Assembly: GCA_003551705.1 (NCBI GenBank)
Contig: PUNJ01000117.1
Location: 8,041 to 72,040, forward strand
Direction of reading: 5' to 3'
DNA from: Chloroflexota bacterium
Lineage (GTDB): Bacteria > Chloroflexota > Dehalococcoidia > UBA2247 > RBG-13-53-26
Length of the DNA stretch: 64,000 bases
The position numbers and the translations under genes were made by a program. Shown in pieces: positions 17,095 to 53,279 of the stretch. Each line of letters begins with the position of its first letter. Position 1 is the stretch's first letter. The notes beneath the pieces are model-generated. The model had not been told where the DNA came from, did no database searches, and saw only the letters and a program-made list of their open reading frames with translations.

Positions 17095-17101
17095 TGTTGT
17101 C

Positions 17102-18268: not shown

Positions 18269-18281
18269 AGAAACGCCCCTG

Positions 18282-18731: not shown

Positions 18732-18754
18732 CTAAGCACCCTCATCTGGAAAAT

Positions 18755-20416: not shown

Positions 20417-20435
20417 CAGACCTCCAGTCCTGCTG

Positions 20436-21125: not shown

Positions 21126-21162
21126 CGATAAACTTCACCCCGCTTCAGGTTCTAGCCAGAGA

Positions 21163-22362: not shown

Positions 22363-22371
22363 CTGACAACC

Positions 22372-23394
22372 TCACATAGCACCGGCGACGACTTCGGCCA
22401 GGTCTAACACCTCAATCTTTTCCGATCCCAGTTCTTTAAGTCCAGCCTTCAGTTGAAGGATGCAGCCAGGACAGTGGGTGACGATTGTGTCCGCCCCTGT
22501 ATCCAGGAGTTCCTTCGTGCGATTCACGGCAAGAATGTGGCTGAGTTCAGGGAAAACAGCCTCGAACCCTCCACCTCCGCCGCAGCAAGTTGACCATTCC
22601 TTCTCAGTCCCTTCACTACTTACGAGTTCAACACCCTCGATCGCACTCAACACCTGACGAGGCTCTTCTATTACCCCCATAAACCTGGAAAGCTGGCAGG
22701 GGTCATGGTACACAACCTTGACCTGGCGTGAGAACTGGAGCTTTCTCGACCCGAGGTTCTCGGCGACTATTTGAATGAAGTGTTTCACTTCCAGATCGGA
22801 ACCACCGTCCTGCGATGCCACGAAATTGCTGAGAGTGTAGGTACAAGAAGGCACGAGCCCTATTATCCGCTTCACACCTCTGGATTTCAGCACCTTGCGC
22901 ACATCCTCGGTGTTCTTGACAAAGTCTCTTTCCAAACCGATGTAGTGCAGCAACCCACCGCAGCAGGGCTCATCTTCACCCAGATAGCCGAACTCAATGC
23001 CAAGCTTGTTCAACACCGTAACCGCATCCTTCAATGGCTTCGTATCGGCCTCATTCCCCCTCACCGTTACCTTTCGATATACGCCACCAAGGTCGATGCC
23101 AAGTTTCTTCTGTAATCCGGCCATTCCCATGGGTAACTCCGCACCTATTTTGCTCTTGTCCATGCCCCGCATCAGGGACATCAGCGAAACGAGATCGCTG
23201 GAGTACTGGTATCCGCACCCAGCAAAGAAAATGGTATCAGTCTCCTTGGAGAACTTGATATCTTTGGCCCACTTCGAGCGGGATCTCTTTGCATCGCCTA
23301 GAATATTGTGCTTGGAAATTATATTATCAGCCAGGTATGCCAACCCTGGAGGGATCAGGCCCTTCGATTTACTACTCATGTGAATAACCCCCAA
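22372..23394 (-). CDS. CCG-domain Fe-S oxidoreductase (HdrB/HdrD/GlcF/LutA/SdhE-like)
   Basis: 340 aa; two CCG motifs (EDEPCCGGLLHY and WSTCCGGGGGFEAV). Confidence 0.65.
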   Translation of the reverse strand: MGVIHMSSKSKGLIPPGLAYLADNIISKHNILGDAKRSRSKWAKDIKFSKETDTIFFAGCGYQYSSDLVSLMSLMRGMDKSKIGAELPMGMAGLQKKLGIDLGGVYRKVTVRGNEADTKPLKDAVTVLNKLGIEFGYLGEDEPCCGGLLHYIGLERDFVKNTEDVRKVLKSRGVKRIIGLVPSCTYTLSNFVASQDGGSDLEVKHFIQIVAENLGSRKLQFSRQVKVVYHDPCQLSRFMGVIEEPRQVLSAIEGVELVSSEGTEKEWSTCCGGGGGFEAVFPELSHILAVNRTKELLDTGADTIVTHCPGCILQLKAGLKELGSEKIEVLDLAEVVAGAM

Positions 23395-23410
23395 TATGAA
23401 TTCGGTCTAC

Positions 23411-24295
23411 TCAGGCGCGTACCGGTAGACGGTCCTTCAGTAGCTGCGATATCTCGCTGGGCCTCTCAGCCACCGGTACGCCGGCGGCAAGGTAGGCATC
23501 CACCTTTGACCGGGCAGTGCCGACATTGCCCATGACGATGGCGCCCGCATGTCCCATTCGCTTTTCAGGAGGAGCGGCCCTTCCCGCAATGTACGCCACC
23601 ACCGGCTTCGGATACCGCGTGTCAGCGATATACTGGGCAGCCATCTCCTCTGCTTTGCCCCCCACCTCACCAATCAATACAACGCCTTTCGTCTCAGCAT
23701 CATTCCTGAACATCTCAAGCAGCTTTACAAAGTCCAACCAAACTATCGCATCACCCCCGATGCCAACGCAAATACTTTGACCCAGTCCGGAACTCGTTAT
23801 GTGCCAGGCGATCTCGTAGGTCAACGTACCGCTTCTGGAGGCTATGGCTACGTTCCCAGCCTGGAAGATGTGACCGGGCATGATGCCAACCTTGACTCTG
23901 TCTACAGGGTTTATGACTCCAGGACAATTGGGTCCGACTATCACTGCGCCGGTCCTCTCCGCTTTGGCAATGAACTCAATGGAGTCTTTCTGCGGTACCA
24001 TCTCGGTAATAATCACCACCGTCTTGATACCTGCATCCAAAGCTTCATGCACTGCGTCAGGAGCGAAGCGCGCAGGTACAAAGATAATGGATGTGTTGGC
24101 CCCACGTTCCGCTACAGCCTGTGGTACCGTCCCATATACAGGCACGCCCTCGACTTCTTGACCTCCTTTGCCTGGAGTGACCCCGGCCACTACATTGGTC
24201 CCGTATCGCAACATGGACTGAGCGTGAAACCTGCCTTCATTACCAGTTATACCCTGCACTACCACCCGGGAACCAGCATCGATTATGCTATTCAA
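23411..24295 (-). CDS. sucD: succinyl-CoA synthetase alpha subunit
   Basis: 294 aa; CoA-binding and catalytic-His region (GHAGAIV) typical of SucD. Confidence 0.9.
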   Translation of the reverse strand: MNSIIDAGSRVVVQGITGNEGRFHAQSMLRYGTNVVAGVTPGKGGQEVEGVPVYGTVPQAVAERGANTSIIFVPARFAPDAVHEALDAGIKTVVIITEMVPQKDSIEFIAKAERTGAVIVGPNCPGVINPVDRVKVGIMPGHIFQAGNVAIASRSGTLTYEIAWHITSSGLGQSICVGIGGDAIVWLDFVKLLEMFRNDAETKGVVLIGEVGGKAEEMAAQYIADTRYPKPVVAYIAGRAAPPEKRMGHAGAIVMGNVGTARSKVDAYLAAGVPVAERPSEISQLLKDRLPVRA

Positions 24296-25437
24296 GACTT
24301 CACCTCACCACTTATCTTCAGTAACTGCTCTGTAGCCGTCTCCATGTCGGGGTATACCCCAATCCCGGCCTCGCTCAATAACCTGGCACCTTCCTCTTCA
24401 TTCGTACCCATCATTCGCACTGCAACCGGCTTCTTCTCCCATGAGGCTTCCAGACCTTGAATGATTCCGTCCGCAACGATATCACATCGCGTGATCCCGC
24501 CCAGAATATTCACCAGGACTCCCTTCACCTCAGGCTTTGACATGACAAGGAGCAAGCCGTTCTTGATGACGTCCACCTTAGCCCCGCCTCCAATATCCAG
24601 AAAATTCGCAGCCCGCCCCCCATAGAGATTCACAAGGTCCATGGTAGCCATTACCAGTCCAGCGCCGTTGCCTACAATACCGATGTTTCCATCCAGTTCT
24701 ACATAAGCCAGACCCTGCCGCCTCGCCACGGCTTCTCTGGGAGTATCTTCAGTCCGCACCATGTCCCGTTGTTCGAATTCAGGGTGGCGAAAAATCGCGT
24801 TCTCATCAATGATTATCCTGGCATCGGCAGCTACGAATGCACCGGTAGACGTCTTTGCCAGGGGATTGAGCTCGACCAATTCAGCATCAAAGTCCATGGC
24901 CACCGTATACAGAGTGGCGGCAACCTTGGCAAAGCCTTCAGTATCACCCTCCGACAGCCCGAACTCCTTAACCATGTTTCTTGCCGCAGCAACATCAAAG
25001 CCCGTTGTGGGTTCCACCCAGTGGCGCAATATCTTATCCGGTGTGGCGCTGGCCACCTCTTCGATGTCCACACCGCCGCTCGTAGACAGCAAAACGACGA
25101 ACTTTCGCTCTTGCCGGTCGACGGTGACCGACGCATAGAGCTGGTCTACCAGGTCAAGCTTCTCTTCTATGAGTACAATCTCTACGGGGATATCCTTGAT
25201 CCTGCTGCCAACAAGTTTCGCCGCAGCATCTCCAGCAGCCTGTGGACTATCGGCAAAAACTATACCGCCTGCCTTGCCTCTGCCCGAGACTTGCACTTGG
25301 GCTTTTATGACTACAGGCCCACCAAAGCCGGCGGCTATGGTCTCCGCTTCGGCAGGATCCATGGTCACCCGCCCGGCCGGTATACCCAGCCCGTACCTTC
25401 CCAGTATTTCTTTGGCTTCATATTCAAAAAGCTTCAA
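24292..25437 (-). CDS. sucC: succinyl-CoA synthetase beta subunit (ATP-grasp)
   Basis: 381 aa; MKLFEYEAKEIL start, ATP-grasp and ligase-CoA domains; 4-nt overlap with sucD. Confidence 0.9.
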   Translation of the reverse strand: MKLFEYEAKEILGRYGLGIPAGRVTMDPAEAETIAAGFGGPVVIKAQVQVSGRGKAGGIVFADSPQAAGDAAAKLVGSRIKDIPVEIVLIEEKLDLVDQLYASVTVDRQERKFVVLLSTSGGVDIEEVASATPDKILRHWVEPTTGFDVAAARNMVKEFGLSEGDTEGFAKVAATLYTVAMDFDAELVELNPLAKTSTGAFVAADARIIIDENAIFRHPEFEQRDMVRTEDTPREAVARRQGLAYVELDGNIGIVGNGAGLVMATMDLVNLYGGRAANFLDIGGGAKVDVIKNGLLLVMSKPEVKGVLVNILGGITRCDIVADGIIQGLEASWEKKPVAVRMMGTNEEEGARLLSEAGIGVYPDMETATEQLLKISGEVKS

Positions 25438-25455
25438 AAACTTCCTCCCGCGGAG

Positions 25456-25860
25456 CTATTGTGGTTCGGTCAACTCAATGAGCGCTCTCGTTCCCTTGGG
25501 ATGCAGGAAGGCTATCTTGTTGTTCCCCGCACCCATACGCGACTTCTTGTCTATGAGCGGTACTCCTCCCTTGTCCAGGTTTTCCAGCACGCTATCTATA
25601 TTGTCTACCTGTAACGCCAGGTGATGCAGACCCTCGCCTCTGGAAGCTATGAACTTGCCGATGGGTCCATCTGGGTCAGTAGTTTCCAGTAACTCTATTC
25701 TGATATCGCCGACAGGAATGACAGCGACACGGACTTTCTGGTCTGATACTATTTCAATATCCTCCACTTTCAAGCCAAGCCATTCCACGTAGGGTTTCAT
25801 GGCTTCCTCAATGCTGTTTACGGCAATCCCGATATGGTTAACCTTCTTTACCACGGCCAT
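25456..25860 (-). CDS. methylmalonyl-CoA epimerase (VOC/glyoxalase fold)
   Basis: 134 aa; HIGIAV...HHLALQV metal-binding pattern; in the mutase operon. Confidence 0.75.
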
Positions 25861-26251
25861 TCTCCTTCATCTGCTTCTCGATATAGGCTGTAATGTCTGC
25901 CAGGCGTGTGCCCGGTCCAAACACCCTGGATAGGCCGGCCTCTTGGAGGACTGGGATATCCTTCTCGGGGATGATGCCTCCGCCGACTACAAGGATGTGT
26001 CCAGCGCCCTTGCTGCGCAGTAGTTCCACAACCCTGGGGAAAAGGGTCATGTGAGCCCCCGACAGGCAACTGAGCCCGACAACATCGACGTCTTCCTGTA
26101 CCGCTGCATCGCATATCTGTTCGGGAGTCAGCCGAAGGCCAAGATAGACCACTTCCATACCCGCATCGCGTAGGCCCTGCGCAATGACCTTCGCGCCTCT
26201 GTCATGTCCGTCCAAGCCTGGTTTGGCCACTAGTACTCGAATCTTGTCCAT
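25838..26251 (-). CDS. methylmalonyl-CoA mutase, B12-binding small subunit
   Basis: 137 aa; DGHDRGAKV (DxHxxG cobalamin His-ligand motif), Rossmann-like. Confidence 0.85.
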
Positions 26252-26266
26252 GACTTTGATCCCTTC

Positions 26267-27871
26267 CTATAAAATGTTCGGTTCCCGGTATTCTCCGAAT
26301 ACACTCCTGAGTACATCGCTTATTTCGCCCACAGTTGCATACGCCTTCGCTGCCTCAATGAGGGCCGGCATCAGGTTTTGATCACTTTGAGACGTCTCGC
26401 GCACACCTTCCAGTGCTCTGCCGACCTTCTCCTTGTCTCTGCCCTTTCTCAGCTTCTCAAGGCGCTCCGCTTGTTTCTGCTCGATTTCCCGTCCAATCTC
26501 GAGTATCTTGCGTGGTTCAGCCTCAGCTACCTGGTATTTGTTTACTCCAACAATGACCTGATCACCGGAGTCCACCGCTTTCTGAAAACTGTACGAGGAG
26601 CTGGCGATTTCCCTCTGGATATAGCCCTTTTCAATGGCCTTGAGCGCGCCCCCCAGGCGGTCGACCTCCTCAATGTATTCCAGAATCTTCGTTTCCAGAG
26701 CGTTAGTCAGAGACTCAACAAAGAAAGACCCGCCAAGCGGGTCCACCGTATCCGCTACACCACTCTCCTCAGCAATGATCTGTTGTGTCCTCAAGGCCAC
26801 CTGTACCGCTTCCTCGGTGGGCAAAGCCAGTGCTTCGTCATACGAGTTGGTATGTAGTGACTGGCAGCCACCCAGTACTGCTGCGAGCGACTGTATCGTG
26901 ACCCTGACGATGTTGTTCAGCGGCTGCTGTGCAGTGAGTGTGAAGCCATCTGTCTGTACGTGATAACGGAGGGATTGCGACCTGGTATTGGTGCTCCCGA
27001 AACGTTCCTTCATGATCCTGGCCCAGAGACGGCGCAGAGCCCTGTACTTTGCCACCTCTTCCAGCAGATTGGTATAAGCCGCGAAGAAGAATGAGAACCT
27101 CGATGCAAAGGAATCGACTTCCATGCCCTTGGCAATCATGGCCTCTACATAGGCTATGCCATTAGCCAGCGTGAAAGCGGCTTCCTGGGCGGCAGTGGCA
27201 CCGGCCTCCCTCATATGATAACCACTGATACTTATCGAGTTCCACTTGGGCAATTCGTTGGCACAGAAGGAGCATATATCAGTTACAAGCCTCATGGAAG
27301 GTTCCGGGCCAAAGATGTAGGTATTGCGAGCAATATACTCCTTGAGAATGTCATTTTGAACGGTGCCCTCGAGCTTGTTCCGATCAGCCCCCTGCTTCTC
27401 CGCCGCTACAATGTACATGGCGAGAATGATGGGCGCTGTGGCGTTTATGGTCATGGATGTACTGACATCTGCCAGAGGGATGCCCTCCCACAGCCGCTCC
27501 ATATCCTCAAGTGAGTCTACAATTACGCCGCATCTGCCGACCTCGCCTGCCGCCAGCGGATGGTCCGAGTCATACCCCTCCTGGGTAGGTAGCTGGAAGG
27601 CCACGCTGAACCCAGTCTGCCCCTGCTTGTACAGGTACTTGAATCTCTCGTTTGTTTCCTCAACCGTGCCGAAGCCGGCATACTGCCGCATGGTCCAGAG
27701 CCTGCCTCGATAACCAGTGGGCATGATATGCCGGGTGAAGGGGTACTCGCCTGGCAATCCCAGGTCCTCATCCCGAACAGCGGCATCGGCTGCAGTGTAG
27801 ACCCTCTTAACGGGCAAACCATCTACGGTCGTTTTGAATTCGGTCTTTCTTTCGCTGCTCTTATCCGCCAT
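26267..27871 (-). CDS. methylmalonyl-CoA mutase, large catalytic (TIM-barrel) subunit; split archaeal-type
   Basis: 534 aa; [48 protein letters not shown]; start ATG at 27869..27871 with GGAAGAGG SD. Confidence 0.9.
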
Positions 27872-28981: not shown

Positions 28982-29350
28982 TTGGATGCTTTAGGTAGAC
29001 ATCTACTCTTGGAACTCAAGGAATGCAACCCCGCAGTCCTAGATGACCTGGCTTTTCTGGAGGAGACCATGTTAACAGCAGCCCAGAAAGCAGGTGCCAC
29101 CGTACTGGAACAGTACTTCCATCAGTTCTCACCTCAAGGAGTCAGCGGCGCCGTGATAATAGCCGAATCCCATCTTTCCCTGCATACCTGGCCGGAGTTC
29201 GGCTACGCCGCAGTCGACATCTTTACATGCGGAGACTCGGTCGATACCGAGGCCGCTGCCGACCTTCTCATCGAGAGACTCCAAAGCAAGGACCCTGTAA
29301 TCATGGAAGTAAAGAGAGGGGTACTGATCAGAACACCAAGCAGAGTGTAG
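28982..29350 (+). CDS. speH: S-adenosylmethionine decarboxylase proenzyme (pyruvoyl-dependent, SpeH type)
   Basis: 122 aa; TTG start with GGAGGG SD; ESHLSLHTWPE self-cleavage motif. Confidence 0.8.
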   Translation: MDALGRHLLLELKECNPAVLDDLAFLEETMLTAAQKAGATVLEQYFHQFSPQGVSGAVIIAESHLSLHTWPEFGYAAVDIFTCGDSVDTEAAADLLIERLQSKDPVIMEVKRGVLIRTPSRV

Positions 29351-29352
29351 GC

Positions 29353-30276
29353 ATGGACGAGTCTGACCCAAACTTATGGTTCCGAGATTCAATTAGCCCA
29401 GACTTTGTGCAACTGCACAGGTTCAGGGAAATAGTGTACTCGGGCACAACCGAATACCAATCATTGGAGATCATCGAGACGGACGCCTTGGGGAGGTGTC
29501 TGGTACTCGACGGAAAGTTGCAGTCCGCCGAGACAGATGAGTTCATTTATCACGAAGCCCTGGTTCATCCAGGTCTGATGGCGCACGCCCATCCCCGGAC
29601 CGTTTTTGTGGCTGGCGGCGGAGAGGGAGCCACCGTCAGAGAGATACTGCGCCACGATTGCGTTGAGCGGGTGATCATGGTGGATATCGACGGGGAGGCC
29701 GTTGACATCTGCCGGCGGTGCCTTACATCCATGAACGCTGAAGCCTTCGATGATCATCGCCTCGAACTTCTACATCAGGATGCCAGGGCGTACCTGGCCA
29801 ATACGGATGTGAAATTCGACGCGTTGATCATGGATATCACGGACCCGCTCGAAGGCGGGCCCGCCTACATGCTATATACTCAAGAATTCTACAAACTTGT
29901 GCATGATCGTCTGGCCCCTGAAGGTATTGTAGCTGTGCAGTCGGGAAGCGCCTCACTGGGGGACCTCAATGTCTTCCTCGCCGTTCACGCAACACTGAAG
30001 ACCGTGTTCCCCCTGGTCTTCCCCTATCATGCCTTCGTACCATCTTTCGGCGGCCTGTGGGGTTTCAACTTGGCCGGTCGAGATTTGGCACCCTTCACCA
30101 TCGCAAATAGCGAGATTGATACGCGAATCGCATCTCGATTGTCCGGTAAGATGCAGTTCTACGACAGCATCACCCATCGCAGCCTATTCAGCCTCCCCCT
30201 ATATTTGCGGCGCGCCCTCGAGGAACAGAGACAAATCATTACAGACGGCAACCCCGTTTTTTTCCACCAGCGCTGA
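29353..30276 (+). CDS. speE: spermidine synthase (aminopropyltransferase)
   Basis: ORF 29227..30276; likely start ATG 29353 (MDESDPNLWF), 2 nt after speH stop; VFVAGGGEGATVREILRH and VIMVDIDGEAVD motifs. Confidence 0.85.
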   Translation: MDESDPNLWFRDSISPDFVQLHRFREIVYSGTTEYQSLEIIETDALGRCLVLDGKLQSAETDEFIYHEALVHPGLMAHAHPRTVFVAGGGEGATVREILRHDCVERVIMVDIDGEAVDICRRCLTSMNAEAFDDHRLELLHQDARAYLANTDVKFDALIMDITDPLEGGPAYMLYTQEFYKLVHDRLAPEGIVAVQSGSASLGDLNVFLAVHATLKTVFPLVFPYHAFVPSFGGLWGFNLAGRDLAPFTIANSEIDTRIASRLSGKMQFYDSITHRSLFSLPLYLRRALEEQRQIITDGNPVFFHQR

Positions 30277-30297: not shown

Positions 30298-30346
30298 TTG
30301 ACTTGCACCCTGCGACATCTATATAATGTTGATAAAGTTAATCAAC
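30298..30346 (+). promoter_or_regulatory. sigma70-like promoter (TTGACT-N18-TATAAT) with overlapping inverted repeat GTTGAT-N7-ATCAAC: candidate autoregulatory Rrf2 operator
   Basis: -35 at 30298..30303, -10 at 30322..30327, inverted repeat at 30328..30346, ATG of the Rrf2 gene at 30352 with almost no leader. Confidence 0.5.
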
Positions 30347-30351
30347 AAACT

Positions 30352-30795
30352 ATGAAACTTTCTACTCGAAGTCGATACGGACTGACCGCTCTCTTGGACA
30401 TAGCCTCGCAGCCCTCAGACAAGCCGGTCCTGCTCAAGGACATAGCCAAGAGACAGCAGATTCCCGCCCAGTACCTGCATCAACTGGTTACGCCTTTAAT
30501 AAAGGCGGGAATCCTGTTCAGCGTGCGTGGGGCTCATGGGGGCGTCAGCCTGGCCAAACCTTCGAACGAGATAGTCCTCGAGACCGTCATCCGAATTCTC
30601 GAAGGATCAATTGCGCCCGTCAAGTGCGTTGACGACCCTAAATCGTGCACCCGTTCCGATTTCTGTGTGACTCGCGAGGTCTGGACCGAGGTGAATCAGG
30701 CGATGACGGGTGTGCTCGAGTCCATAACCTTGCAGGACCTTGTGATACGTCAACGAGAGAAGGAACAACTGAAGACCACCATGTACTACATCTAG
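30352..30795 (+). CDS. Rrf2-family transcriptional regulator (IscR/CymR-like, three-Cys Fe-S ligand set)
   Basis: Start MKLSTRSRYGLTALLDIA (ORF 30298 begins on the -35 hexamer). Winged-helix N-terminus, then C-x6-C-x5-C (CVDDPKSCTRSDFC). Confidence 0.8.
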   Translation: MKLSTRSRYGLTALLDIASQPSDKPVLLKDIAKRQQIPAQYLHQLVTPLIKAGILFSVRGAHGGVSLAKPSNEIVLETVIRILEGSIAPVKCVDDPKSCTRSDFCVTREVWTEVNQAMTGVLESITLQDLVIRQREKEQLKTTMYYI

Positions 30796-30823: not shown

Positions 30824-31759
30824 GTGGTGAAAGAAAGACCGCTCATTGCAGAGAATATAACCGACCTGATCGGTCACACCCCGATTGTACGATTGGCCCG
30901 TATCGGTGCGGGACTCGAAGCACAGATCTTGGCCAAGTTGGAATCATTCAATCCGCTGGCCAGTTTGAAGGACAGGATCGGCCTGGAAATGATCGAGGCT
31001 GCGGAGCAGGAAGGACGGATCACGCCTGCTACTGTGATTGTGGAAGCCACCAGCGGAAACACCGGCATCTCACTGGCGTTTGTCTGCGCCGTAAAGGGCT
31101 ACAAGCTGATCATAACCATGCCCGACTCCATGTCGGACGAGAGAAAGAGACTGCTGGCCGTCTTCGGAACGCAACTGGTAATGACGCCGGCCAAAGATGG
31201 TATGCTTGGGGCATTGAAGAAGGCATCGGAAATCGCAACGCAGAACTCCAACCACCTGCTGCTGAGCCAGTTCACGAACCCTGCCAACACGCAGGCGCAC
31301 CGCAATACCACCGCCGAGGAGATATGGCATGACACCGGCGGGCAGCTGGATGTCCTAGTTGCAGGCGTAGGTACTGGTGGCACCTTAACCGGAGTGGGAG
31401 AGGTAATCAAGCAACGAAAACCCTCAATACATTTAGTGGCTGTTGAACCGCAGGCGTCCCCCGTGCTGTCGGGAGGAAAGCCGGGTCCCCACGGCATCCA
31501 GGGACTGGGCGCCGGGTTTATACCTGATATTCTCAATCTGCGCGTGGTCGACGAGATTATGCCCGTAACCAAGGAAGAGGCTGTGGAGACATGCAGCAGA
31601 CTGGCCCGGGAAGAGGGCATCCTGGCCGGCATATCTTCCGGGGCTGCTACCTGGGCAGCCATGGAGATCGCGGCCAGACCAGAGATGCGTGGCAAGATAG
31701 TTCTGGTAATACTCCCCGACTCTGGGGAGCGATATTTGAGCAACGCCTTGCCAGCGTGA
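30824..31759 (+). CDS. cysK: cysteine synthase (O-acetylserine sulfhydrylase)
   Basis: 311 aa; PLP-lysine motif NPLASLKDRIG, GTGGT loop. Confidence 0.9.
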   Translation: MVKERPLIAENITDLIGHTPIVRLARIGAGLEAQILAKLESFNPLASLKDRIGLEMIEAAEQEGRITPATVIVEATSGNTGISLAFVCAVKGYKLIITMPDSMSDERKRLLAVFGTQLVMTPAKDGMLGALKKASEIATQNSNHLLLSQFTNPANTQAHRNTTAEEIWHDTGGQLDVLVAGVGTGGTLTGVGEVIKQRKPSIHLVAVEPQASPVLSGGKPGPHGIQGLGAGFIPDILNLRVVDEIMPVTKEEAVETCSRLAREEGILAGISSGAATWAAMEIAARPEMRGKIVLVILPDSGERYLSNALPA

Positions 31760-31778: not shown

Positions 31779-32567
31779 ATGGACGAGGTCACCATATCCA
31801 GAGCGATTATCGAGAGTTTCTCCAGGGAATTCCTGGATGCTATGGATGTGGATGTGGCCGTTGCCGGCGCCGGCCCATCGGGGATGATGGCCGCGTATGA
31901 TCTGGCCAGTGCCGGTTTCAAGACCGTTGTCTTTGAAAAGAACCTCCGCCTGGGTGGCGGCATGCCGGGAGGCGGCATGATGTTCAACCGCATCGTCCTG
32001 CAGGAAGAGGGCAAACAAATACTGGGCGATCTTAATGTGAGGATGCAGGAGTTCTCCGACGGCTATTACACGGCCGACGCGCTCGAAGCCATGTCAGTGA
32101 TAGCGGTCCGGGCCATCCAGGCAGGAACCAAGGTCTTCAATCTGATCAGCGTTGAGGATGTCATGATCAGAGAAGAGAACCGCATAACAGGACTTGTGCT
32201 TAACTGGACGGCTGTTTCCATGGCCGGACTTCACGTAGATCCCCTGGCGGCCAAGGCAAGGGTGGTCATCGACGCCACCGGGCATGAGTGTGAAGTTGCC
32301 CGGATCGTAGAGCGCAAGATAGGCGCCTATTTGCGGACGCCCACGGGCCGGATAATGGGAGAGAAGTCGATGTGGGCGGAACGGGGAGAAACAGAGATTA
32401 TCGAAAACACAAGGGAGGTCTACCCAGGGCTTGTGGTAGCCGGTATGGCCGCCAATGCCGTCTGCGGTTCACCGCGCATGGGGGCGATTTTCGGCGGCAT
32501 GCTGATATCGGGCAAGCGGGCAGCCCAGGTAGCGATCGAAATGTTGAAAGATGGAGAGCGTGTTTAG
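31779..32567 (+). CDS. thi4: thiazole synthase Thi4 (archaeal/eukaryotic type; no Cys at the suicide-donor position, i.e. sulfide-dependent type)
   Basis: 262 aa; [26 protein letters not shown] fold; [14 protein letters not shown] region lacks the yeast Cys205; good SD GAAGGAGG. Confidence 0.8.
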
Positions 32568-33210
32568 TACAGTCAAAGAGGATATAAGAACCGTTTTCGA
32601 GCGTGACCCTGCTGCTCGGACCCTGATGGAGGTGGTATTCTGCTACCCCGGGCTGCATGCCTTGCTGATGCATAGACAGGCCCATTACCTGTGGCGGCAC
32701 CGCCTTCGGTTCTTAGCTAGACTGCTCTCGCATTTAAACCGGTGCATAACCGGGATAGAGATACATCCGGGAGCCAGAATCGGCCGGAGGCTGTTCATAG
32801 ACCACGGTATGGGCGTGGTAATAGGCGAAACTACGGAGATAGGCGATGACGTACTCATGTATCAGGGAGTAGTCCTCGGCGGGACCAGCCTCGAGAAGAC
32901 AAAGCGTCATCCTACAATAGGCAACAGTGTGGTGATCGGCGCGGCGGCCATTCTGCTGGGCCCCATCGAAGTCGGAGAAGGTGCCAGAGTAGGAGCCAAT
33001 TCAGTCGTCATCAACTCCGTCCCTCCCGGTTCGACAGTGGTCGGCATTCCCGGCCGGGTAGTCGGAGATAAGAGGATATCAACCATAGACCTGGACCATG
33101 GCAAGCTGCCTGACCCGGTCGCTGAAGCCCTGGGGCTTGTTCTTGAGCAACAGCGAAAGCTCGAGGAACGAATAGGGCGTCTCGAAACGCAACTGCAGAA
33201 CAGGACATGA
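32551..33210 (+). CDS. cysE: serine O-acetyltransferase
   Basis: 219 aa; [10 protein letters not shown]-terminal motif, hexapeptide repeats ([28 protein letters not shown]). Confidence 0.85.
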
Positions 33211-33381
33211 TTACCGGAGTGTGGCAGGTGTTAAATAGATGATCGTTACAACTAGCCGGCGGTGCCCGGTTCCTCTTAGAAGGCAACCTGGGAAAGAAGG
33301 CCCATCGCTATGGGCCATGCGCGGCCCGCGCAAGCGGGCGACGGCGGTACCCCGAAATCGGCTCTTCCAGGAGGATATTTG

Positions 33382-34581
33382 ATGTTGAAATCAATTGACG
33401 AAATAAATGAGAAGATCAGCAAAGGCCAGGCCGTCGTTGTAACGGCTGAGGAAATCATAGACATCATCGACGAGAAAGGACTGCCCAGGGCGGCCCGTGA
33501 GGTGGACGTAGTAACCACTGGCACCTTCGGGCCCATGTGCTCGTCCGGCGCCTATCTCAACCTGGGACACCCGGTCCCCCGCATGAAGTTCAGTAGCAGT
33601 ACTTATGTCAACGAAGTCCCAGCCTACTCAGGATTTGCAGCCGTAGACATTTTCATAGGGGCTACAGCCCTTCCCGACAATGATCCCAGAAACAAGACAT
33701 ACCCCGGTGAATTCCCCTATGGGGGCGGTCACGTGATCGAGGAGCTTGTAGCCGGGAAGGACTTGAGGCTGGTGGCCAATACCTACGGGACCGATTGCTA
33801 TCCCAGAAGAAGAATCGACACCCTTATCAACATTGACAGCATCAACGAAGCGACGCTTTTCAACATGCGTAATGCCTACCAGAACTATAATATAGGCGTT
33901 AACCTGTCCGACCGGACCATACACACTTACATGGGTGTACTCAAACCCAGATTGGGAAACGCCACCTACAGCTCAGCAGGACAGTTATCACCCCTGCTGA
34001 ACGATCCTTATTATAAGTCCATAGGCGTAGGCACCAAGATCTTCCTTGGCGGCGGGACTGGATATGTAGCCTGGCATGGTACACAACACAGTCCGTGCGC
34101 TCTAAGAGGCGACAATGGAGTACCCAGGCGGGGATCAGGGACCCTGGCTGTGATTGGAGACCTCAAGCAAATGAGCCCGCACTGGCTCCGGGGTGTTAGC
34201 TTTCTCGGCTACGGGGTAAGTCTGATGGTGGGCATAGGGGTACCCATCCCGGTCACTTCGGAGAAAGTCCTGGCCTGTGCCGGTGTCAGAGATGAAAACA
34301 TATTCGCCCCGGTAGTAGACTATTCCAATGCCTATCCCTATGCCAAAACCGAAATCCTGGCGGAGGCAAGTTATGCCCAGCTCAAGACGGGCATCATTAC
34401 CGTCAACGGCAAGTCCGTTCCTACGGCTTCGCTCTCAAGCTATGCGAAGGCTACCGAGATAGCCGAGATACTCAAGAAATGGATAAAGGACGGGGACTTC
34501 TCTCTGACCAGTCCGGTAGCTCCGTTGCCCGGAGTAGAATCGGGTATTGTGATGAATTCGCTCAAAGAACGGGACCATTAA
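33382..34581 (+). CDS. COG1900/DUF39 sulfide-dependent homocysteine biosynthesis protein (MA1821-like L-aspartate-semialdehyde sulfurtransferase)
   Basis: ORF 33310..34581; start ATG 33382 with GGAGGA SD; about 400 aa with family-typical Cys residues. Confidence 0.75.
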   Translation: MLKSIDEINEKISKGQAVVVTAEEIIDIIDEKGLPRAAREVDVVTTGTFGPMCSSGAYLNLGHPVPRMKFSSSTYVNEVPAYSGFAAVDIFIGATALPDNDPRNKTYPGEFPYGGGHVIEELVAGKDLRLVANTYGTDCYPRRRIDTLINIDSINEATLFNMRNAYQNYNIGVNLSDRTIHTYMGVLKPRLGNATYSSAGQLSPLLNDPYYKSIGVGTKIFLGGGTGYVAWHGTQHSPCALRGDNGVPRRGSGTLAVIGDLKQMSPHWLRGVSFLGYGVSLMVGIGVPIPVTSEKVLACAGVRDENIFAPVVDYSNAYPYAKTEILAEASYAQLKTGIITVNGKSVPTASLSSYAKATEIAEILKKWIKDGDFSLTSPVAPLPGVESGIVMNSLKERDH

Positions 34582-34591
34582 AGGAGGGGAA

Positions 34592-35002
34592 ATGTCTGTA
34601 TCGAGAAGAATTGTCCTGCGTTTTCCCCGTCCTCTTGTCGACCAGCCCATAATTTACAAGCTGGTGAAGGACTACAACCTCATGTTCAATATCCTCAAGG
34701 CCTCAGTTACTCCCAAGGAGGAAGGCCTTCTGGCCTTGGAGCTAAGTGGTACCCAGGCGGACTACAACAGAGGAGTACAGTTTCTGACAGAGGCCGGGGT
34801 AGAAATACAACCTATTGGCAAGGACATATTCAGGGATGAGGACCTGTGCACGCATTGTGGGGCATGCGTTACCATGTGCCCCACTGATGCCTTTCACATC
34901 GAGGGCAGGGCAAGATGGATAAGGTTCGACGCAGAGAAATGCATTGCCTGCGGCATCTGTATCAAGGCATGCCCGGCGCGGGCCATGGAAATGACGATTT
35001 GA
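34592..35002 (+). CDS. NIL-domain / 4Fe-4S ferredoxin protein (MA1822-like partner of COG1900)
   Basis: 136 aa; N-terminal NIL domain then CTHCGACVTMCP and CIACGICIKACP. Confidence 0.7.
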   Translation: MSVSRRIVLRFPRPLVDQPIIYKLVKDYNLMFNILKASVTPKEEGLLALELSGTQADYNRGVQFLTEAGVEIQPIGKDIFRDEDLCTHCGACVTMCPTDAFHIEGRARWIRFDAEKCIACGICIKACPARAMEMTI

Positions 35003-35745
35003 ACAGTGCGATTTCGTACCAACCCCGGCTATACAGGGACTGGACCAGGGACAGGGACCTGGTTTCCTGCTCGGTGGTTGCCGGTCAGACAGACCTCTGC
35101 GTCAGGACCACACGTAACCTACGGTTCAGAGCAGTGAAGCTGCTGTCCAAATACCGGGGCCAGCTGGAGCGATACATCGAGAGGCATCCTGAGTTCGAAG
35201 GCGCCCTTGCCCCCATCTCTGTAGGCGGTGAAGCCCCGGAAATTGCCAAGGCTATGGCCCGAGCAGCAGAGATAGCCGGAGTCGGTCCGATGGCCGCCGT
35301 TGCGGGAGCCATAGCCGGTTTCGTGGGCAGGGGTTTGTCCAGGTACTCTGAGGAGACCATCATAGAGAACGGGGGAGACATCTTTTTGCAATCAAGCCGG
35401 AAGCGACTAGTGGGCGTGTTTGCCGGCGAATCGCCATTGTCGGGCAGCATTGCACTTGAGATACAACCGGAGGAGACTCCTTTGGGCATTTGCACCTCTT
35501 CAGGAACGGTAGGACATTCGTTGAGCTTTGGCAAAGCAGATGCATGCATAGTTTTGTCGCCCATTGTGGAGATCGCCGATGCGGCGGCCACGGCTCTGGG
35601 CAATCGCATCATGTCGGCGGCAGATATCCCGGCTGCAATAGAAGCAGCCAAGCTGATGAATGAAGTCGCCGGTGTGGTTATCATAAAAGGAGACCAGATG
35701 GGAGTTTGGGGCAAAGTTAAGCTTGTCCCTCAACGGGAGCAATGA
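34999..35745 (+). CDS. UPF0280 / COG2122 ApbE-like protein (MA1715-like, third component of the sulfide-dependent homocysteine system)
   Basis: ORF 34915..35745 overlaps the ferredoxin gene; likely TTG start at 34999 (LNSAISYQPRLYRDW...). Start uncertain. Confidence 0.55.
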   Translation: MNSAISYQPRLYRDWTRDRDLVSCSVVAGQTDLCVRTTRNLRFRAVKLLSKYRGQLERYIERHPEFEGALAPISVGGEAPEIAKAMARAAEIAGVGPMAAVAGAIAGFVGRGLSRYSEETIIENGGDIFLQSSRKRLVGVFAGESPLSGSIALEIQPEETPLGICTSSGTVGHSLSFGKADACIVLSPIVEIADAAATALGNRIMSAADIPAAIEAAKLMNEVAGVVIIKGDQMGVWGKVKLVPQREQ

Positions 35746-36920
35746 GAAGAATATACCTGGATCACGCAGCTACTACACCAGTTAGACCCGAGGTGCTGGA
35801 GGCCATGCTTCCGTACTTTGGTGATGAATTTGGCAATCCATCAAGCATACACTTTCTGGGCCAGGAAACGCGTGTCGCAGTTGAGGAAGCCCGGGAACAG
35901 GTGGCCCGCCTGATCGGGGCCGAAGCAAGCGAGATAGTCTTCACCAGCAGCGGCACCGAAGCCGATAACTTCGCACTGAAGGGAATCGCCTTTGCCAATC
36001 GGAATAGAGGAAAGCATATCATAACGTCGTCAATCGAGCATCATGCCGTCCTGAATCCATGCCATTTCCTCGAGGAGCAGGGTTTTGATGTCACCTACCT
36101 CGGCGTAGACCGTGACGGCCTGGTAGATCCTGAAGCCGTTGCGAAAGCTGTCAGGCCAGACACCATCCTGGTGTCGATTATGCATGCCAATAACGAGATC
36201 GGCACGCTGCAGCCCGTGGAGCAAATCAGCACCATAACCAGGGAGCACGGAATCTGCTTCCATACGGATGCCGTACAGACGGTTGGTCGTATACCGGTGG
36301 ATGTCGAGGCGATTGGGGCGGACTTGCTGTCCATGGCAGCACACAAGCTATACGGTCCAAAGGGGGTCGGTGCTCTCTTCATCAGAAGGGGCACTAAGAT
36401 TCACCCCTTCATGCATGGCGGCGGGCAGGAGAAAGGCCGGCGAGCCAGCACGGAGAATGTGCCCGGCATCGTCGGCTTCGGGAAAGCCGCCGCTATGGCC
36501 CGGTCCGAGATGGACACCGAAGTCCCTCGTTTGACTTCCATGCGTGATAGATTGATCAGCGGCCTGTTGGGCAAGATGGACCGCGTATATTTGAACGGGC
36601 ATCCGCAACTCCGGTTGCCCAACAATGTTAATCTGAGCATTGACTTCGTCGAAGGGGAGTCGTTAGCAGTCAGCCTTGATCTCGAGGGCATAGCGGCCTC
36701 GACCGGCTCTGCATGCACGTCGACCGACATGCATGCGTCACATGTCCTGACTGCCATCGGAGTTTCGGGAATCCTCGCCAGAGGATCGCTGCGGTTCTCC
36801 CTCGGGCACGCAAATGATGATGCCGATGTTGATTATGTGCTTGATGCCCTACCCGGAATCGTAAACAGGCTAAGAGCCATATCACCATTGGCCAGGTCCG
36901 ATCGTGCAAGAAATGAATAG
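35742..36920 (+). CDS. cysteine desulfurase (NifS/IscS class)
   Basis: 392 aa; PLP-Lys in SMAAHKLYGPKG, persulfide Cys in STGSACTS. Confidence 0.85.
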   Translation: MRRIYLDHAATTPVRPEVLEAMLPYFGDEFGNPSSIHFLGQETRVAVEEAREQVARLIGAEASEIVFTSSGTEADNFALKGIAFANRNRGKHIITSSIEHHAVLNPCHFLEEQGFDVTYLGVDRDGLVDPEAVAKAVRPDTILVSIMHANNEIGTLQPVEQISTITREHGICFHTDAVQTVGRIPVDVEAIGADLLSMAAHKLYGPKGVGALFIRRGTKIHPFMHGGGQEKGRRASTENVPGIVGFGKAAAMARSEMDTEVPRLTSMRDRLISGLLGKMDRVYLNGHPQLRLPNNVNLSIDFVEGESLAVSLDLEGIAASTGSACTSTDMHASHVLTAIGVSGILARGSLRFSLGHANDDADVDYVLDALPGIVNRLRAISPLARSDRARNE

Positions 36921-36969
36921 CCGAGGCGAAGAACATACGGAGATATGCGTGAAGGAGACTAATTAAGCC

Positions 36970-37410
36970 ATGCCAGAGATTGTGGCGGTCTGCATCAGCA
37001 ATGAAGTAGGCACGAAGAAGAAGCCGGTAGGCCATGCAAACCTTGTCGAGGATCTCGGCCTGGAGGGCGATGCCCATGCGGGCTATCTGCCTAATCGTCA
37101 TGTAAGCTTGCTTGCCTTGGAGAGTATCGAAAAGATGCGAGATCAGGGACTGGATGTAGGCCCTGGAGATTTCGCTGAAAACATCACCACACAAGGTATA
37201 GACCTGCCCTCCCTGCCTCTTGGTACCAGGCTCACGATAGGCCCACAAGCTGTGCTGCAGATCACGCAAATCGGCAAGGAATGCCACACGCGATGTGCCA
37301 TCTATTACCAGGCAGGAGACTGTATCATGCCAAAGGAGGGCGTATTCGCCCGTGTAGTGCGTGGAGGTCCGATCTGTGACGGCGATCCCATAGTGAGGGC
37401 CGAAAGCTAG
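36970..37410 (+). CDS. MOSC-domain protein (MoCo sulfurase C-terminal domain family)
   Basis: 146 aa beta-barrel MOSC pattern with conserved Cys (GKECHTRCAIY). Confidence 0.65.
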   Translation: MPEIVAVCISNEVGTKKKPVGHANLVEDLGLEGDAHAGYLPNRHVSLLALESIEKMRDQGLDVGPGDFAENITTQGIDLPSLPLGTRLTIGPQAVLQITQIGKECHTRCAIYYQAGDCIMPKEGVFARVVRGGPICDGDPIVRAES

Positions 37411-37418
37411 AGAAACCC

Positions 37419-38207
37419 ATGCAAGAGGAAGTCGAAAGAGTAACCGCATTGCGGTACACCGGTACGGATGTGCAGGAGATTGACGAATCGGTCGTGAAGG
37501 AATACCCCTTCACTATCTCGGTCAATAACCAGGAACTCGTGACGTTGCTCTGTTCGCCCACCTATCTCAAGTTTCTGGCTGTCGGGTTTCTGGTTTCGGA
37601 AGGTATCATCAAGAGCAAGGACGATATCAAGAAGGTGGTAGTGGACGAGAGACTGGGAATAGCCTGGGTGCAGACCACTGACCAGGAGGCTGTGCAGCCG
37701 CTGATGTTATCCAAGAGATTGATCACTTCCGGTTGCGGTCGTGGAGCATCCTTCTACAATCCGGATGATGCCCAAGCTTTCACCATTATTGAGTCAAAGC
37801 TGACGGTCAAGCCAGAAGATGTTTTCTCCCTTGTGCAGGAGTTTCAGCATTACTCCGAAATCTACAAGACCACTCACGGCGTTCACAGCGCGGCTTTGTG
37901 CGACAATAAGAAGATATTGCTTTTTCGGGATGACATTGGCAGGCATAACGCCATTGACAAAATAGTTGGAGAATGCCTTCTTAACGACCTGTCGACGCAA
38001 GACCGCATGATTGTTGTCAGCGGACGCATATCCTCTGAGATGGCTGTCAAAGTTGCAAAGAGAAATATACCAGTCCTGGTATCCATTTCGGCGCCGACAG
38101 ACCTCGGTATCCGCCTCGCCAATGAGTTTGGCCTTACCCTGATTGGTTTTGTCAGGCCCAAGAGGATGAACGTGTATGCAGGTAGGGAAAGAATAGCAGG
38201 ACTATGA
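37419..38207 (+). CDS. fdhD: FdhD-type sulfurtransferase (formate dehydrogenase accessory protein family)
   Basis: 262 aa; catalytic loop TSGCGRGAS; no formate dehydrogenase gene in this window. Confidence 0.8.
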   Translation: MQEEVERVTALRYTGTDVQEIDESVVKEYPFTISVNNQELVTLLCSPTYLKFLAVGFLVSEGIIKSKDDIKKVVVDERLGIAWVQTTDQEAVQPLMLSKRLITSGCGRGASFYNPDDAQAFTIIESKLTVKPEDVFSLVQEFQHYSEIYKTTHGVHSAALCDNKKILLFRDDIGRHNAIDKIVGECLLNDLSTQDRMIVVSGRISSEMAVKVAKRNIPVLVSISAPTDLGIRLANEFGLTLIGFVRPKRMNVYAGRERIAGL

Positions 38208-39124
38208 GTACAGAGAAGAACCGAATCTCCAGATTGAAAGACAGAATATCCGAACTTAAGAATAGAAGGGACGCCCTGATCCTGGCCCACAATTACCAGT
38301 TGGGCGAAGTCCAGGACATCGCTGATGTTGTGGGCGACTCATTGGAGTTGAGCCGCATCGCAGCTGCATCCGAGGCTAGCGTTGTCGTCTTTTGCGGCGT
38401 TCACTTCATGGCCGAAACCGCCTATATCCTCAGTCCGGACAAGACGGTGTTACTGCCCAACCTGGGAGCAGGGTGTCCCATGGCTGACATGATCACCGCT
38501 GCCGAAGTCAAGCGGATGAGGCAAGACCACCCCAATGCCATGGTGGTAGCTTATGTCAATACAAGCGCGGAGGTAAAAGCGCACTCCGATGTGTGCTGTA
38601 CATCGGCTAATGCGGCAAGGCTCGTCGCCAATCTTGATGCAGAGGAAATCATCTTTGTACCTGACCAGTATCTTGGAAGTTACGTCATGGCCCAAACCGG
38701 CAAGACGATGATCTTATCGTCCGGTTATTGCCCAACTCATGCCAGAATCTCCGGAGTCCATATTGCCAAGCTGCGCAAGGAGTACCCTGAAGCCGTGGTC
38801 ATCGCCCATCCGGAATGCCGTCCCGATGCAATAGAACTTGCCGACGAGGTGTTAAGCACGGGCGGCATGTGCCAATACGTCAAGACCGCCCCGGCAAGAC
38901 AGATCATCGTGGCTACTGAGATCGGTATCATACACAGGCTGCAGAAAGAGAACCCAAACAAGGTATACCTCCCCGTATCGGAGCAGGCTGTTTGCCCCAA
39001 CATGAAGATGATCACCCTCGACGACATAGTCAGGTCGCTGGAAGACATGGCGCCGGAGGTAACGGTGCCGGAAGACATTCGAGCCAGGGCCAAGCTTGCT
39101 GTTGACAGGATGCTGCTTGGTTGA
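38204..39124 (+). CDS. nadA: quinolinate synthase
   Basis: 306 aa; LAHNYQ, FCGVHFMAET, three conserved Cys for the 4Fe-4S cluster. Confidence 0.9.
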   Translation: MSTEKNRISRLKDRISELKNRRDALILAHNYQLGEVQDIADVVGDSLELSRIAAASEASVVVFCGVHFMAETAYILSPDKTVLLPNLGAGCPMADMITAAEVKRMRQDHPNAMVVAYVNTSAEVKAHSDVCCTSANAARLVANLDAEEIIFVPDQYLGSYVMAQTGKTMILSSGYCPTHARISGVHIAKLRKEYPEAVVIAHPECRPDAIELADEVLSTGGMCQYVKTAPARQIIVATEIGIIHRLQKENPNKVYLPVSEQAVCPNMKMITLDDIVRSLEDMAPEVTVPEDIRARAKLAVDRMLLG

Positions 39125-46018: not shown

Positions 46019-46705
46019 CTATTGATGTACCGCTTCTATTTCGCCCTTCAGGTAAGCCTCGTTCACCTGCTTTGCCGGGTGTAACTGTACGCTATAGTCC
46101 TTCAGCGGGGCCAGTTCTTCCATCTTGTCCAAACGTCCCTGCTTGGACAACCGCTCGTATATCAGTGCCCACGCACAATCCCTCTCCGTGCTGGTCTCAC
46201 ACTTGCCCTCTTTCTGACCGCCGCACTGGCCGTTGACCAGACCCTTTGGACACCTGGCAATAGGACAGATGCCGCCATAATCGGCAAGCAGGCAATTACC
46301 GCAGGCACGGCACCGCTCCGACCAGACACCCTCCGCCTCCGCAACCCCTATGAAACGCGTATTCAGTCCGGGGACCACCGGCTGCGTCTCCAGCATATCA
46401 GCCACCAGTTGCACGCCCGCGCCACAGGCCAGAGAGAGGACCGCCTCGACACCCCTGGCCTTCTCCAGAATAGGCTCGATATACTCTCTGTCGCACTGCC
46501 GCTGTATGGTGGCTTCTTCAATCTTCACATTGCCATTCTTCAACTGCGCGGCCATCCTTAGCTGCGAGGCCAGCAGTTCCACTTCCTTCTCGCCGCCAGC
46601 CATGCATACGCTGACACACGTCCCGCATCCAAGGACCAGCAGACTCTTGTAGTCCTTGACCCGCTCCTGGATTTCTTCGAAAGGTTTTCTCTCACCAACA
46701 ATCAT
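46019..46705 (-). CDS. MetV-like Cys-rich protein (MTHFR C-terminal zinc-ribbon domain family) with extra N-terminal CGTC module
   Basis: 228 aa; CRACGNCLLADYGGICPIARCPKGLVNGQCGG...GKCE matches the MetV / PF12225 pattern; 4-nt overlap with the mvhD stop. Confidence 0.55.
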   Translation of the reverse strand: MIVGERKPFEEIQERVKDYKSLLVLGCGTCVSVCMAGGEKEVELLASQLRMAAQLKNGNVKIEEATIQRQCDREYIEPILEKARGVEAVLSLACGAGVQLVADMLETQPVVPGLNTRFIGVAEAEGVWSERCRACGNCLLADYGGICPIARCPKGLVNGQCGGQKEGKCETSTERDCAWALIYERLSKQGRLDKMEELAPLKDYSVQLHPAKQVNEAYLKGEIEAVHQ

Positions 46706-47127: not shown

Positions 47128-47147
47128 GGTACTCTCCTTTCTCTTCG

Positions 47148-51581: not shown

Positions 51582-51596
51582 CGTCTCTACCCTGCC

Positions 51597-52448: not shown

Positions 52449-52450
52449 GA

Positions 52451-53023: not shown

Positions 53024-53279
53024 ACTCCCACCTTCGCAGATTATTGGGATGAAAAAGTAAAAAAGCAACGCCTTCGATTACATGATTACGAAATGCGATT
53101 GCTTTGGTATGAACGTTCTATCCATTCTGGCCAATCTGACGATTCTTCGTATTACCCCCGATTACCAGCTTGTAAACACAATGCAACTTGGGAAATTTTA
53201 CCATGTTGGCCCTCTGTTTGTCCAAGCAGCGCCTTGTATACCAATATCGGGTATGTTATGATTTTGCCGAGGTTGAACA

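Follow-up and report, generated by a model that had tools for sequence, protein, structure and literature searches.

The DUF39 protein Dde_3007 is needed for homocysteine synthesis in Desulfovibrio alaskensis, as described by Kuehl et al. in 2014 (PMC4045070), where DET0921 was named as its Dehalococcoides ortholog. The same study reported that DUF39 orthologs often adjoin a ferredoxin and a COG2122 gene and that bacterial DUF39 proteins are without a CBS domain. Price et al. (2018, PMC5764234) named DET0921:DET0919 as the DUF39 pathway and described all three proteins as required in Desulfovibrio. The NIL domain has been associated with methionine binding and the archaeal CBS domain with the sensing of S-adenosylmethionine (SAM), and the COG1900a family has two nearly universal cysteines, the essential Cys54 and the persulfide site Cys131 (PMC12068725). 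Here, we describe a locus with these three gene families (the trio, with hcyA as its first gene) in a stretch of 64,000 nucleotides (nt) from a Chloroflexota bacterium of the class Dehalococcoidia (GenBank assembly GCA_003551705.1, contig PUNJ01000117.1, positions 8,041 to 72,040 of the forward strand), called the window below. As judged from the sequences, the trio very probably represents the known DUF39/NIL-ferredoxin/COG2122 pathway, which makes homocysteine out of aspartate semialdehyde and sulfide, in the arrangement usual for Dehalococcoidia. It holds no novelty in itself; the new item is a clade-restricted conserved leader upstream of hcyA, which is a candidate regulatory element.

The hcyA trio in the window and in related loci

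The hcyA gene (33382..34581, + strand) encodes a protein of 399 residues, the DUF39/COG1900a subunit of a predicted L-aspartate-semialdehyde sulfurtransferase (hereafter L-ASST) resembling MA1821, Dde_3007, and DET0921. It covers the Pfam model HcyBio (PF01837, "Homocysteine biosynthesis enzyme, sulfur-incorporation") from end to end, with 489.8 bits against a cut-off of 26.2 (E = 5e-147, profile positions 1-349 of 349). The match stops at residue 375, leaving 24 residues to the C-terminus, and the Pfam scan of the full protein gave no match to a CBS domain and no Fer4 match that would indicate an inserted ferredoxin domain. The score against the methanogenesis marker 16 (MMP16) model TIGR03287 is far below its cut-off (119.3 versus 363.95 bits), which, together with the missing inserted ferredoxin domain, places HcyA by its sequence outside the coenzyme M (CoM) synthase branch COG1900d/MMP16. 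A structure search found no solved structure for HcyA.

An in-frame ATG upstream, at 33310, was rejected as the start, since the homologs are about 400 residues long and their alignments begin with the first residue encoded from 33382. The latter was also chosen by an independent gene call on a contig carrying an identical HcyA, which is a 24-kb Logan contig of run SRR490150 with unchanged gene order. Cys53 of HcyA, in the context TFGPMCSSG, is unchanged in 81 of 81 relatives, and Cys139 (GTDCYPR) is kept in 80 of the 81. By position, Cys53 is matched to the essential Cys54 of the MA1821 numbering (PMC12068725), from which it is one residue away.

The second gene (34592..35002, + strand) encodes an MA1822-like ferredoxin subunit of 136 residues with two predicted [4Fe-4S] clusters. 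Its NIL domain (PF09383, residues 5-73) reaches 55.2 bits, with the cut-off at 24, and is followed by two Fer4 units (62.7 bits, residues 81-131), and all eight cluster cysteines of the two CX2CX2CX3CP motifs are unchanged in 72 of 72 relatives.

The third gene (34999..35745, + strand, with a TTG start) encodes a COG2122/UPF0280 ApbE-like protein of 248 residues resembling MA1715 and DvMF_0044. The local Pfam scan gave no match for this protein, which carries the precomputed label PF27030 (AbpE_bact) and matches a structural-genomics entry (PDB ID 2o34) with an E-value of 2.5e-40. Residues 4-244 match the NCBIfam equivalog NF003323 with 299 bits against a cut-off of 271. This model belongs to the PRK04334 family (PRK04334.1-3), which we take to be the same as UPF0280/COG2122.

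All three genes lie on the + strand where an earlier note, made from the DNA letters alone, had placed them, and the family searches it proposed for DUF39, NIL, and COG2122 each gave a match above the cut-off. Its proposal of a role in homocysteine synthesis is likewise supported, as the three proteins pass the models of components known to be genetically required (PMC5764234, PMC12068725). The note had also described the stop and start signals as overlapping, which is the case for two of the three junctions: the ferredoxin TGA and the TTG start of the COG2122 gene share the letters TTGA, and the COG2122 TGA and the ATG of the following nifS gene share ATGA. The hcyA stop TAA (34579..34581) is separated from the ferredoxin ATG by a 10-nt spacer with the Shine-Dalgarno (SD) sequence AGGAGGGG.

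We compared the window with 80 loci from one-genome-per-species contigs and 80 loci from metagenomes (given below by L numbers), in which the window genes were placed by tblastn; the trio was counted only where the sequence runs on for at least 1.8 kb past hcyA, which holds for 70 species genomes and 50 metagenome loci. The best protein matches are 72-77% identical, the named ones coming from metagenome-assembled genomes of Chloroflexota, Dehalococcoidia, or Dehalococcoidales, and close homologs are annotated at their source as "homocysteine biosynthesis protein" or "L-aspartate semialdehyde sulfurtransferase." The identity between HcyA and the ortholog of Dehalococcoides mccartyi (L007) is 72%; together with the family models, the conserved residues, and the partner genes, it points to orthology with the experimentally studied proteins. 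A same-strand hcyA, NIL-ferredoxin, and COG2122 trio is found in 64 of the 70 species genomes, D. mccartyi included, and in 50 of the 50 metagenome loci. The six remaining species loci are without a complete trio downstream of hcyA: in L026, L030, L071, and L074, neither partner lies near hcyA, and in L049 and L050, hcyA is followed by the NIL-ferredoxin gene and not by the COG2122 gene.

The gene directly upstream of hcyA is most commonly thi4 (32 of 70 related Dehalococcoidia loci), and nifS directly follows the COG2122 gene in only 7 of the 114 trio loci. The contiguous trio is thus the norm in Dehalococcoidia, and the sulfur genes around it are a variable neighbourhood. This corrects the earlier note, which had implied that the contiguous trio is unusual; it is the default in this class and has been cited for Dehalococcoides as DET0921:DET0919, and the pathway has been shown genetically in Desulfovibrio.

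Some of the relatives carry additional genes at the trio. Two small NifU-like genes of about 70 residues (PF01106) lie between hcyA and the NIL-ferredoxin gene in L082 (7261..7742), L169 (2734..3210), and L170 (2735..3210), which may point to the HcyA enzyme having an Fe-S or sulfur-carrier partner. A second PALP enzyme of 336 residues directly follows the trio in L164 and L165 (4950..6203), and in L166 to L168 at the same position. L164 and L165 also carry a Cys/Met-metabolism pyridoxal phosphate enzyme (PF01053) after the trio and the PALP enzyme; the two enzymes are likely a trans-sulfuration pair linking homocysteine and cysteine.

The sulfur genes around the trio and its probable role

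The genes flanking the trio match the families that the earlier note had named for them. The sulfur island begins with a transcription regulator of the Rrf2 family (30298..30795, + strand; PF02082, 132.9 bits; TIGR00738, 131 bits, above the cut-off), for which the likely true start near 30394 gives 133 residues, in agreement with a 133-residue gene call on the contig carrying the identical HcyA. The equivalog models for CymR and IscR both score below their cut-offs for this protein. Next on the + strand are cysK (30824..31759), encoding O-acetylserine sulfhydrylase (cysteine synthase A; TIGR01139, 438 bits versus a cut-off of 351), thi4 (31779..32567), encoding a sulfide-dependent ADP-thiazole synthase of the archaeal type (TIGR00292, 325 versus 148), and cysE (32551..33210), encoding serine O-acetyltransferase (TIGR01172, 246 versus 211). 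Downstream of the trio, an ATG that overlaps the COG2122 stop opens a gene for a NifS-type cysteine desulfurase (35742..36920, + strand; TIGR03402, 567 versus 531).

Within 35742..39124, nifS is followed by genes for a MOSC-domain protein, a sulfurtransferase that serves in formate dehydrogenase maturation (fdhD), and an Fe-S enzyme (nadA), an order conserved in L003, L005, L015, and L049; the region resembles a persulfide-relay neighbourhood. At the other end, speD (SAM decarboxylase, about 122 residues) and speE (spermidine synthase, with a true start near 29353 and not at 29227) occupy 28982..30276 directly upstream of the Rrf2-cys-hcy island. SAM-consuming polyamine synthesis therefore lies next to the homocysteine genes, an order kept in L003, L005, and L015. 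These three loci have the complete order speE-rrf2-cysK-thi4-cysE-trio-nifS-fdhD-nadA in common.

The family membership, the conserved cysteines and cluster ligands, and the gene order with its conservation are seen in the sequences themselves; for the chemistry, the compound acted on, and the part that each protein plays, we rely on the published genetics and biochemistry of Methanosarcina and Desulfovibrio. By this analogy, HcyA and the NIL-domain two-cluster ferredoxin would reductively add sulfur to aspartate 4-semialdehyde, with two or four electrons, and homocysteine would be formed directly, bypassing homoserine and an activated homoserine ester. The COG2122/ApbE-like protein would be a required accessory, probably in sulfur mobilisation and delivery or in persulfide loading. 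The trio would be one translationally coupled unit, and nifS, cysK, cysE, and thi4, with the same transcription direction, would make this a larger sulfide-centred operon, which may also provide cysteine (cysE, cysK) and thiazole (thi4) from sulfide, and persulfide sulfur (nifS). As HcyA is without the SAM-sensing CBS domain, feedback would act through the methionine-binding NIL domain and possibly through the conserved leader of the mRNA.

The company of cysK, cysE, thi4, nifS, the MOSC-domain gene, fdhD, and nadA would also suit a different role, in which the trio is not dedicated to homocysteine and acts as a general module for low-sulfide assimilation or persulfide relay, serving cysteine, Fe-S clusters, thiazole, and molybdopterin sulfuration. 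The NifU-like genes between hcyA and the ferredoxin gene in some relatives point the same way, as do the M. acetivorans mutants of MA1715 (COG2122), which either cysteine or homocysteine can rescue (PMC5764234), and the suggestion that L-ASST may back up CoM synthesis (PMC12068725). We consider such a general role very unlikely. Desulfovibrio mutants of the DUF39, NIL-ferredoxin, and COG2122 genes are rescued specifically by methionine or homocysteine (PMC4045070, PMC5764234), the trio is constant between loci while its neighbours vary, and cysK and cysE already constitute the standard route from sulfide to cysteine in the same operon.

In favor of the homocysteine route, none of the canonical homocysteine-route genes (metA, metX, metY, metB, and metC) is found among the other 57 open reading frames (ORFs) of the window. 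Several points weigh against it. A canonical route may coexist elsewhere in the genome, beyond these 64 kb. Trans-sulfuration exists in the lineage, judging from the PALP and PF01053 enzymes after the trio in L164 and L165. In M. acetivorans, deletion of L-ASST gave no methionine phenotype, owing to redundancy, and COG2122 was needed only at low sulfide (PMC12068725, PMC5764234). Additionally, Cys139 of HcyA is equated with Cys131 of MA1821 from its position only.

With homocysteine synthesis as the preferred reading, the window adds one more uncultured Dehalococcoidia bacterium to a pathway that is already established in bacteria, noted for Dehalococcoides, and named in annotation. For metabolic reconstruction, this implies that genomes with the trio should not be counted among methionine auxotrophs.

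The leader upstream of hcyA

The intergenic leader between cysE and hcyA (33211..33381, + strand) is 171 nt long and contains the GNRA-capped hairpin described in the earlier note, GCCCGC-GCAA-GCGGGC (33324..33339). Together with TATGG-GCC-ATG-CGCG directly before it, the hairpin forms a conserved core at 33309..33339 (+ strand). The suggestion that this leader could be regulatory holds in part: no known RNA family and no thermodynamic signal is found in it, and the hairpin lies within a block that is conserved in several relatives, specifically upstream of hcyA.

No match at the Rfam 15 gathering level, the SAM, S-adenosylhomocysteine, and T-box classes included, was found in the whole window, and the leaders of the window, L166, and L085 gave only chance-level matches (E of about 2-6) to unrelated families; a known riboswitch was rejected on these searches. 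The 171-nt leader folds no better than its shuffles (z = -0.88), so that an exceptional fold was rejected as well. An intrinsic terminator or a sigma-70 promoter at the hairpin was discarded, no such site being found there on the + strand. The hairpin sequence alone is within chance (2 matches at up to 3 mismatches versus 0.88 expected), and it is not a dispersed repeat, the window holding one further match only, with 2 mismatches and again within chance.

The whole leader showed no similarity to any of the 80 species loci in nhmmer and blastn searches, and general conservation across Dehalococcoidia was therefore rejected; the block is seen only among closer relatives. In the fully syntenic loci L003, L005, and L015, cysE and hcyA are only about 23 nt apart. 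L081 and L082 share the block with the window, and a profile built from these three leaders found further copies in L085, L086, L022/L026/L141, and L030, with L164 to L168 and L172 as later additions. All profile matches fall on the + strand at 60-90 nt upstream of the hcyA start, with none at any other place in the roughly 1.3 Mb of loci searched. A profile built from the relatives matches the window at 33270..33379 with an E-value of 7e-16.

The consensus from 10 leaders, representing about nine distinct variants, reads TATGG-N3-ATG-N4-GCCC-loop-GGGC, where TATGG, ATG, and GCCC are invariant and GGGC nearly so. The block occurs in only about 10 of 157 usable loci. L026 and L030 retain it although the ferredoxin and COG2122 genes are absent downstream, which indicates that it goes with hcyA. 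L171 (about 1320..1415) was excluded as a variant, as its leader has a run of N beside a duplicated core, probably a scaffolding artefact, and the apparent core copy ATGGCTCATGG in L056, L067, and L159 is merely the coding 3' end of cysE. A full-text literature search found no description of such an hcyA leader, and the only related report predicts that a SAM-I riboswitch/small RNA targets the DUF39 mRNA of D. vulgaris (10.1101/803072).

The GCCC and GGGC arms of the hairpin are kept while the loop varies (GCAA, GAGA, GAAA, GGAA, GUAG, UGA, GUAAG, GGCGA, and UGCAA), and the fifth pair differs by variant, being G-C, G.U, or U-A. Since the differences in loop length are not multiples of three, the hairpin appears to be constrained at the level of the nucleic acid and not as coding sequence.

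A second, long-range helix is predicted in the window by RNAduplex and by minimum free energy folds. Its 5' strand, the pyrimidine-rich UCCUCUU-A-GAAGG (33271..33283, + strand), would pair with UCUUC-C-AGGAGGA (33363..33375, + strand), which contains the hcyA SD sequence. Most variants have such a pyrimidine tract (anti-SD) about 100 nt upstream of the SD to which it is complementary, and the adjoining bases lengthen the helix with unrelated sequences, so that equivalent helices of different sequence are found in L081/L164/L166, L085, L030, and L172. The anti-SD:SD pairing UCCUCUU:AGGAGGA of the window, extended by GAAGG:UCUUC, corresponds to UCCUCCU:AGGAGGA with CAGG:CCUG in the L166 group, to UCCCCCU:AGGGGGA with CAGG:CCUG in L085, and to ACCUCU:AGAGGU with CAAUUGC:GCAAUUUG in L030; in L172, the helix has 14 bp in total. 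The helix is absent in two of the nine variants.

Compared with 500 shuffles of the 5' flank, the duplex reaches p-values of 0.012 in L082, 0.012-0.016 in the L166 group, 0.046 in L085, 0.076 in L172, 0.13 in the window, 0.19 in L030, 0.73 in L022, and 0.83 in L086. A p-value of 0.05 or below is thus reached by three of eight block-bearing variants, versus 2.7% of 146 motif-less hcyA leaders. RNAalifold on the MAFFT alignment recovered only a 4-bp hairpin, with no compensatory pairs and no multi-helix consensus. The MAFFT alignments place the long-range helix out of register. The fold and covariation analysis that the earlier note had suggested recovers its hairpin, without covariation and without an unusual folding energy. 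Overall, the structural evidence for the leader is suggestive and not a statistical proof.

Three further pairings were set aside, as each occurs in a single variant and is not conserved: UAUGGGCC with an upstream GGCCCAU helix in the window, a UGGAU:AUCCA helix in L172, and an 11-bp pairing of the core with the SD-AUG region in L022.

Conservation of the block is mainly in its primary sequence, which could mean that it is a DNA-level signal, such as a promoter or an operator, for example for the Rrf2 protein encoded in the island, and not an RNA element. The 4-bp hairpin without covariation and the fold energy of the window leader, no better than that of shuffles, would agree with this. We regard a DNA signal as rather improbable: between conserved arms, the loop differs from variant to variant in its length as well as its sequence, the fifth pair alternates between G-C, G.U, and U-A, and the 5' flank is complementary to the SD in most variants, with the excess of low p-values over the motif-less leaders given above. 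L026 and L030 also carry the block without a nearby Rrf2 gene, and the site has no sigma-70-like promoter match.

A third explanation starts from the codons in the block. It might encode a short leader peptide of the pattern [LIV]-W-x-M-x-[GSC]-P, Met-rich in some variants, and hcyA would then be controlled, through coupling or attenuation, by the translation of this peptide or by stalling on it. In six of the nine variants, a purine-rich SD and an AUG lie one to six codons before the Trp codon, giving MMMVWTM in L082, MMLMLWLM in L030, MIWTM in L085 and L086, and MRRLWIM in L172, and three different stop codons follow the Pro codon in the L166 group. The window has a possible, speculative upstream ORF of 47 codons (33239..33382, + strand), which runs in the +1 frame across the leader and whose stop overlaps the hcyA start (TGATG); the stop likewise overlaps in L172 (ATGA).

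Against a peptide, the frame is broken in L164, no nearby start is found in the window or the L166 group, and the residue before Trp has a codon with an invariant third position, a codon-position pattern unlike that of coding sequence. Where loops differ in length by other than multiples of three, the frame is shifted, yet the GGGC arm stays conserved. Some of the synonymous changes agree better with a second frame (M-D-N-A-W-P), which nevertheless has a TAG in L082 and L022. We consider a leader peptide unlikely.

The roughly 110-nt leader may be a cis-regulatory RNA of the DUF39 homocysteine pathway that has so far not been described, a possibility to which we give limited credence. Its parts would be a 5' anti-SD tract, a pseudo-SD/AUG segment, the UAUGG-N3-AUG core, the GCCC/GGGC hairpin, and the hcyA SD sequence. 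Such a leader might be a small switch that senses SAM, methionine, or homocysteine as its ligand, or it might be a leader-peptide device; either would gate hcyA translation by sequestering the ribosome-binding site, and in bacteria it could replace the SAM-sensing CBS domain of the archaeal enzyme. If real, a dedicated sensor, whether an RNA or a leader peptide, would offer a way to approach the regulation of the DUF39 pathway in bacteria, and it would bear on which metabolite reports the methionine status in these anaerobes.

Further content of the window and comparison with known systems

Apart from the sulfur island, the window contains an acetogen-style module for methylene-tetrahydrofolate (methylene-THF) reductase at 46019..56320. 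It comprises a MetV-like protein (46019..46705, - strand; PF12225), an HdrA/GltD-like flavo-iron-sulfur fusion of 1477 residues (47148..51581, - strand), an HdrB-like CCG gene (51597..52448), an HdrC-like ferredoxin gene (52451..53068), and the methylene-THF reductase gene MTHFR/MetF (55454..56320, + strand), which recA separates from the other module genes. This composition suggests an electron-bifurcating complex of the MetFV-Hdr type, whose methyl-THF would go to the Wood-Ljungdahl pathway or to methionine synthesis.

Two housekeeping clusters lie on the - strand, at 3330..10934 and 16543..27871. The - strand housekeeping genes include a TreS-Mak fusion, GlgE, and alpha-glucan phosphorylase, which represent the GlgE alpha-glucan pathway. 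A propionate/succinate block on the same strand holds the large and small subunits of methylmalonyl-CoA mutase, the epimerase, and succinyl-CoA synthetase, and also HdrD/LutB-like Fe-S proteins, a fumarate-reductase-like flavoprotein, an acyl-CoA dehydrogenase, and the beta subunit of fumarase.

Among regulatory RNAs, the leader is most readily set beside the translational riboswitches of methionine/SAM genes that sequester the SD sequence, such as SAM-III (the SMK box), SAM-II, and SAM-V. It is like them in having a short conserved core inside a predicted helix that has the ribosome-binding site of a methionine-pathway gene as its 3' strand. It differs in that it matches no Rfam family in the three variants searched, the helix is missing in two of the nine variants, and covariation is too thin to establish a structure.

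The CoM synthase methanogenesis marker 16/ComF (COG1900d) belongs to the same COG1900 superfamily as HcyA and has an analogous aldehyde-to-thiol chemistry (PMC12068725). Its conserved cysteines are at other positions (PMC12068725), and a ferredoxin domain is inserted in its COG1900 domain, which is not the case in the HcyA of the window.

The L-ASST of M. acetivorans, MA1821-MA1822, is closer, with the same COG1900a core, two conserved cysteines, the second of them matched by position only, and an adjacent partner with a NIL domain and two [4Fe-4S] clusters (PMC12068725). MA1821 has a C-terminal, SAM-sensing CBS domain that HcyA is without, and MA1715 is unlinked to MA1821-MA1822, whereas the COG2122 gene of the window is linked to its partners.

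The Desulfovibrio proteins (Dde_3007; DvMF_1464, DvMF_0262, and DvMF_0044) represent the same three families, with a DUF39 protein that has no CBS domain, as in the HcyA of the window (PMC4045070). By their locus tags, the three genes are dispersed in D. vulgaris, whereas they are contiguous and partly overlapping in the window.

The arrangement DET0921-DET0920-DET0919 of D. mccartyi differs from the window in its longer spacers (about 180 nt and 460 nt between the blast matches), in having cysK and not cysE as the upstream neighbour, and in having no nifS directly downstream; the conserved leader block of the window was not detected there. It comes from the same bacterial class and shares with the window the same three families in the same order and on the same strand.

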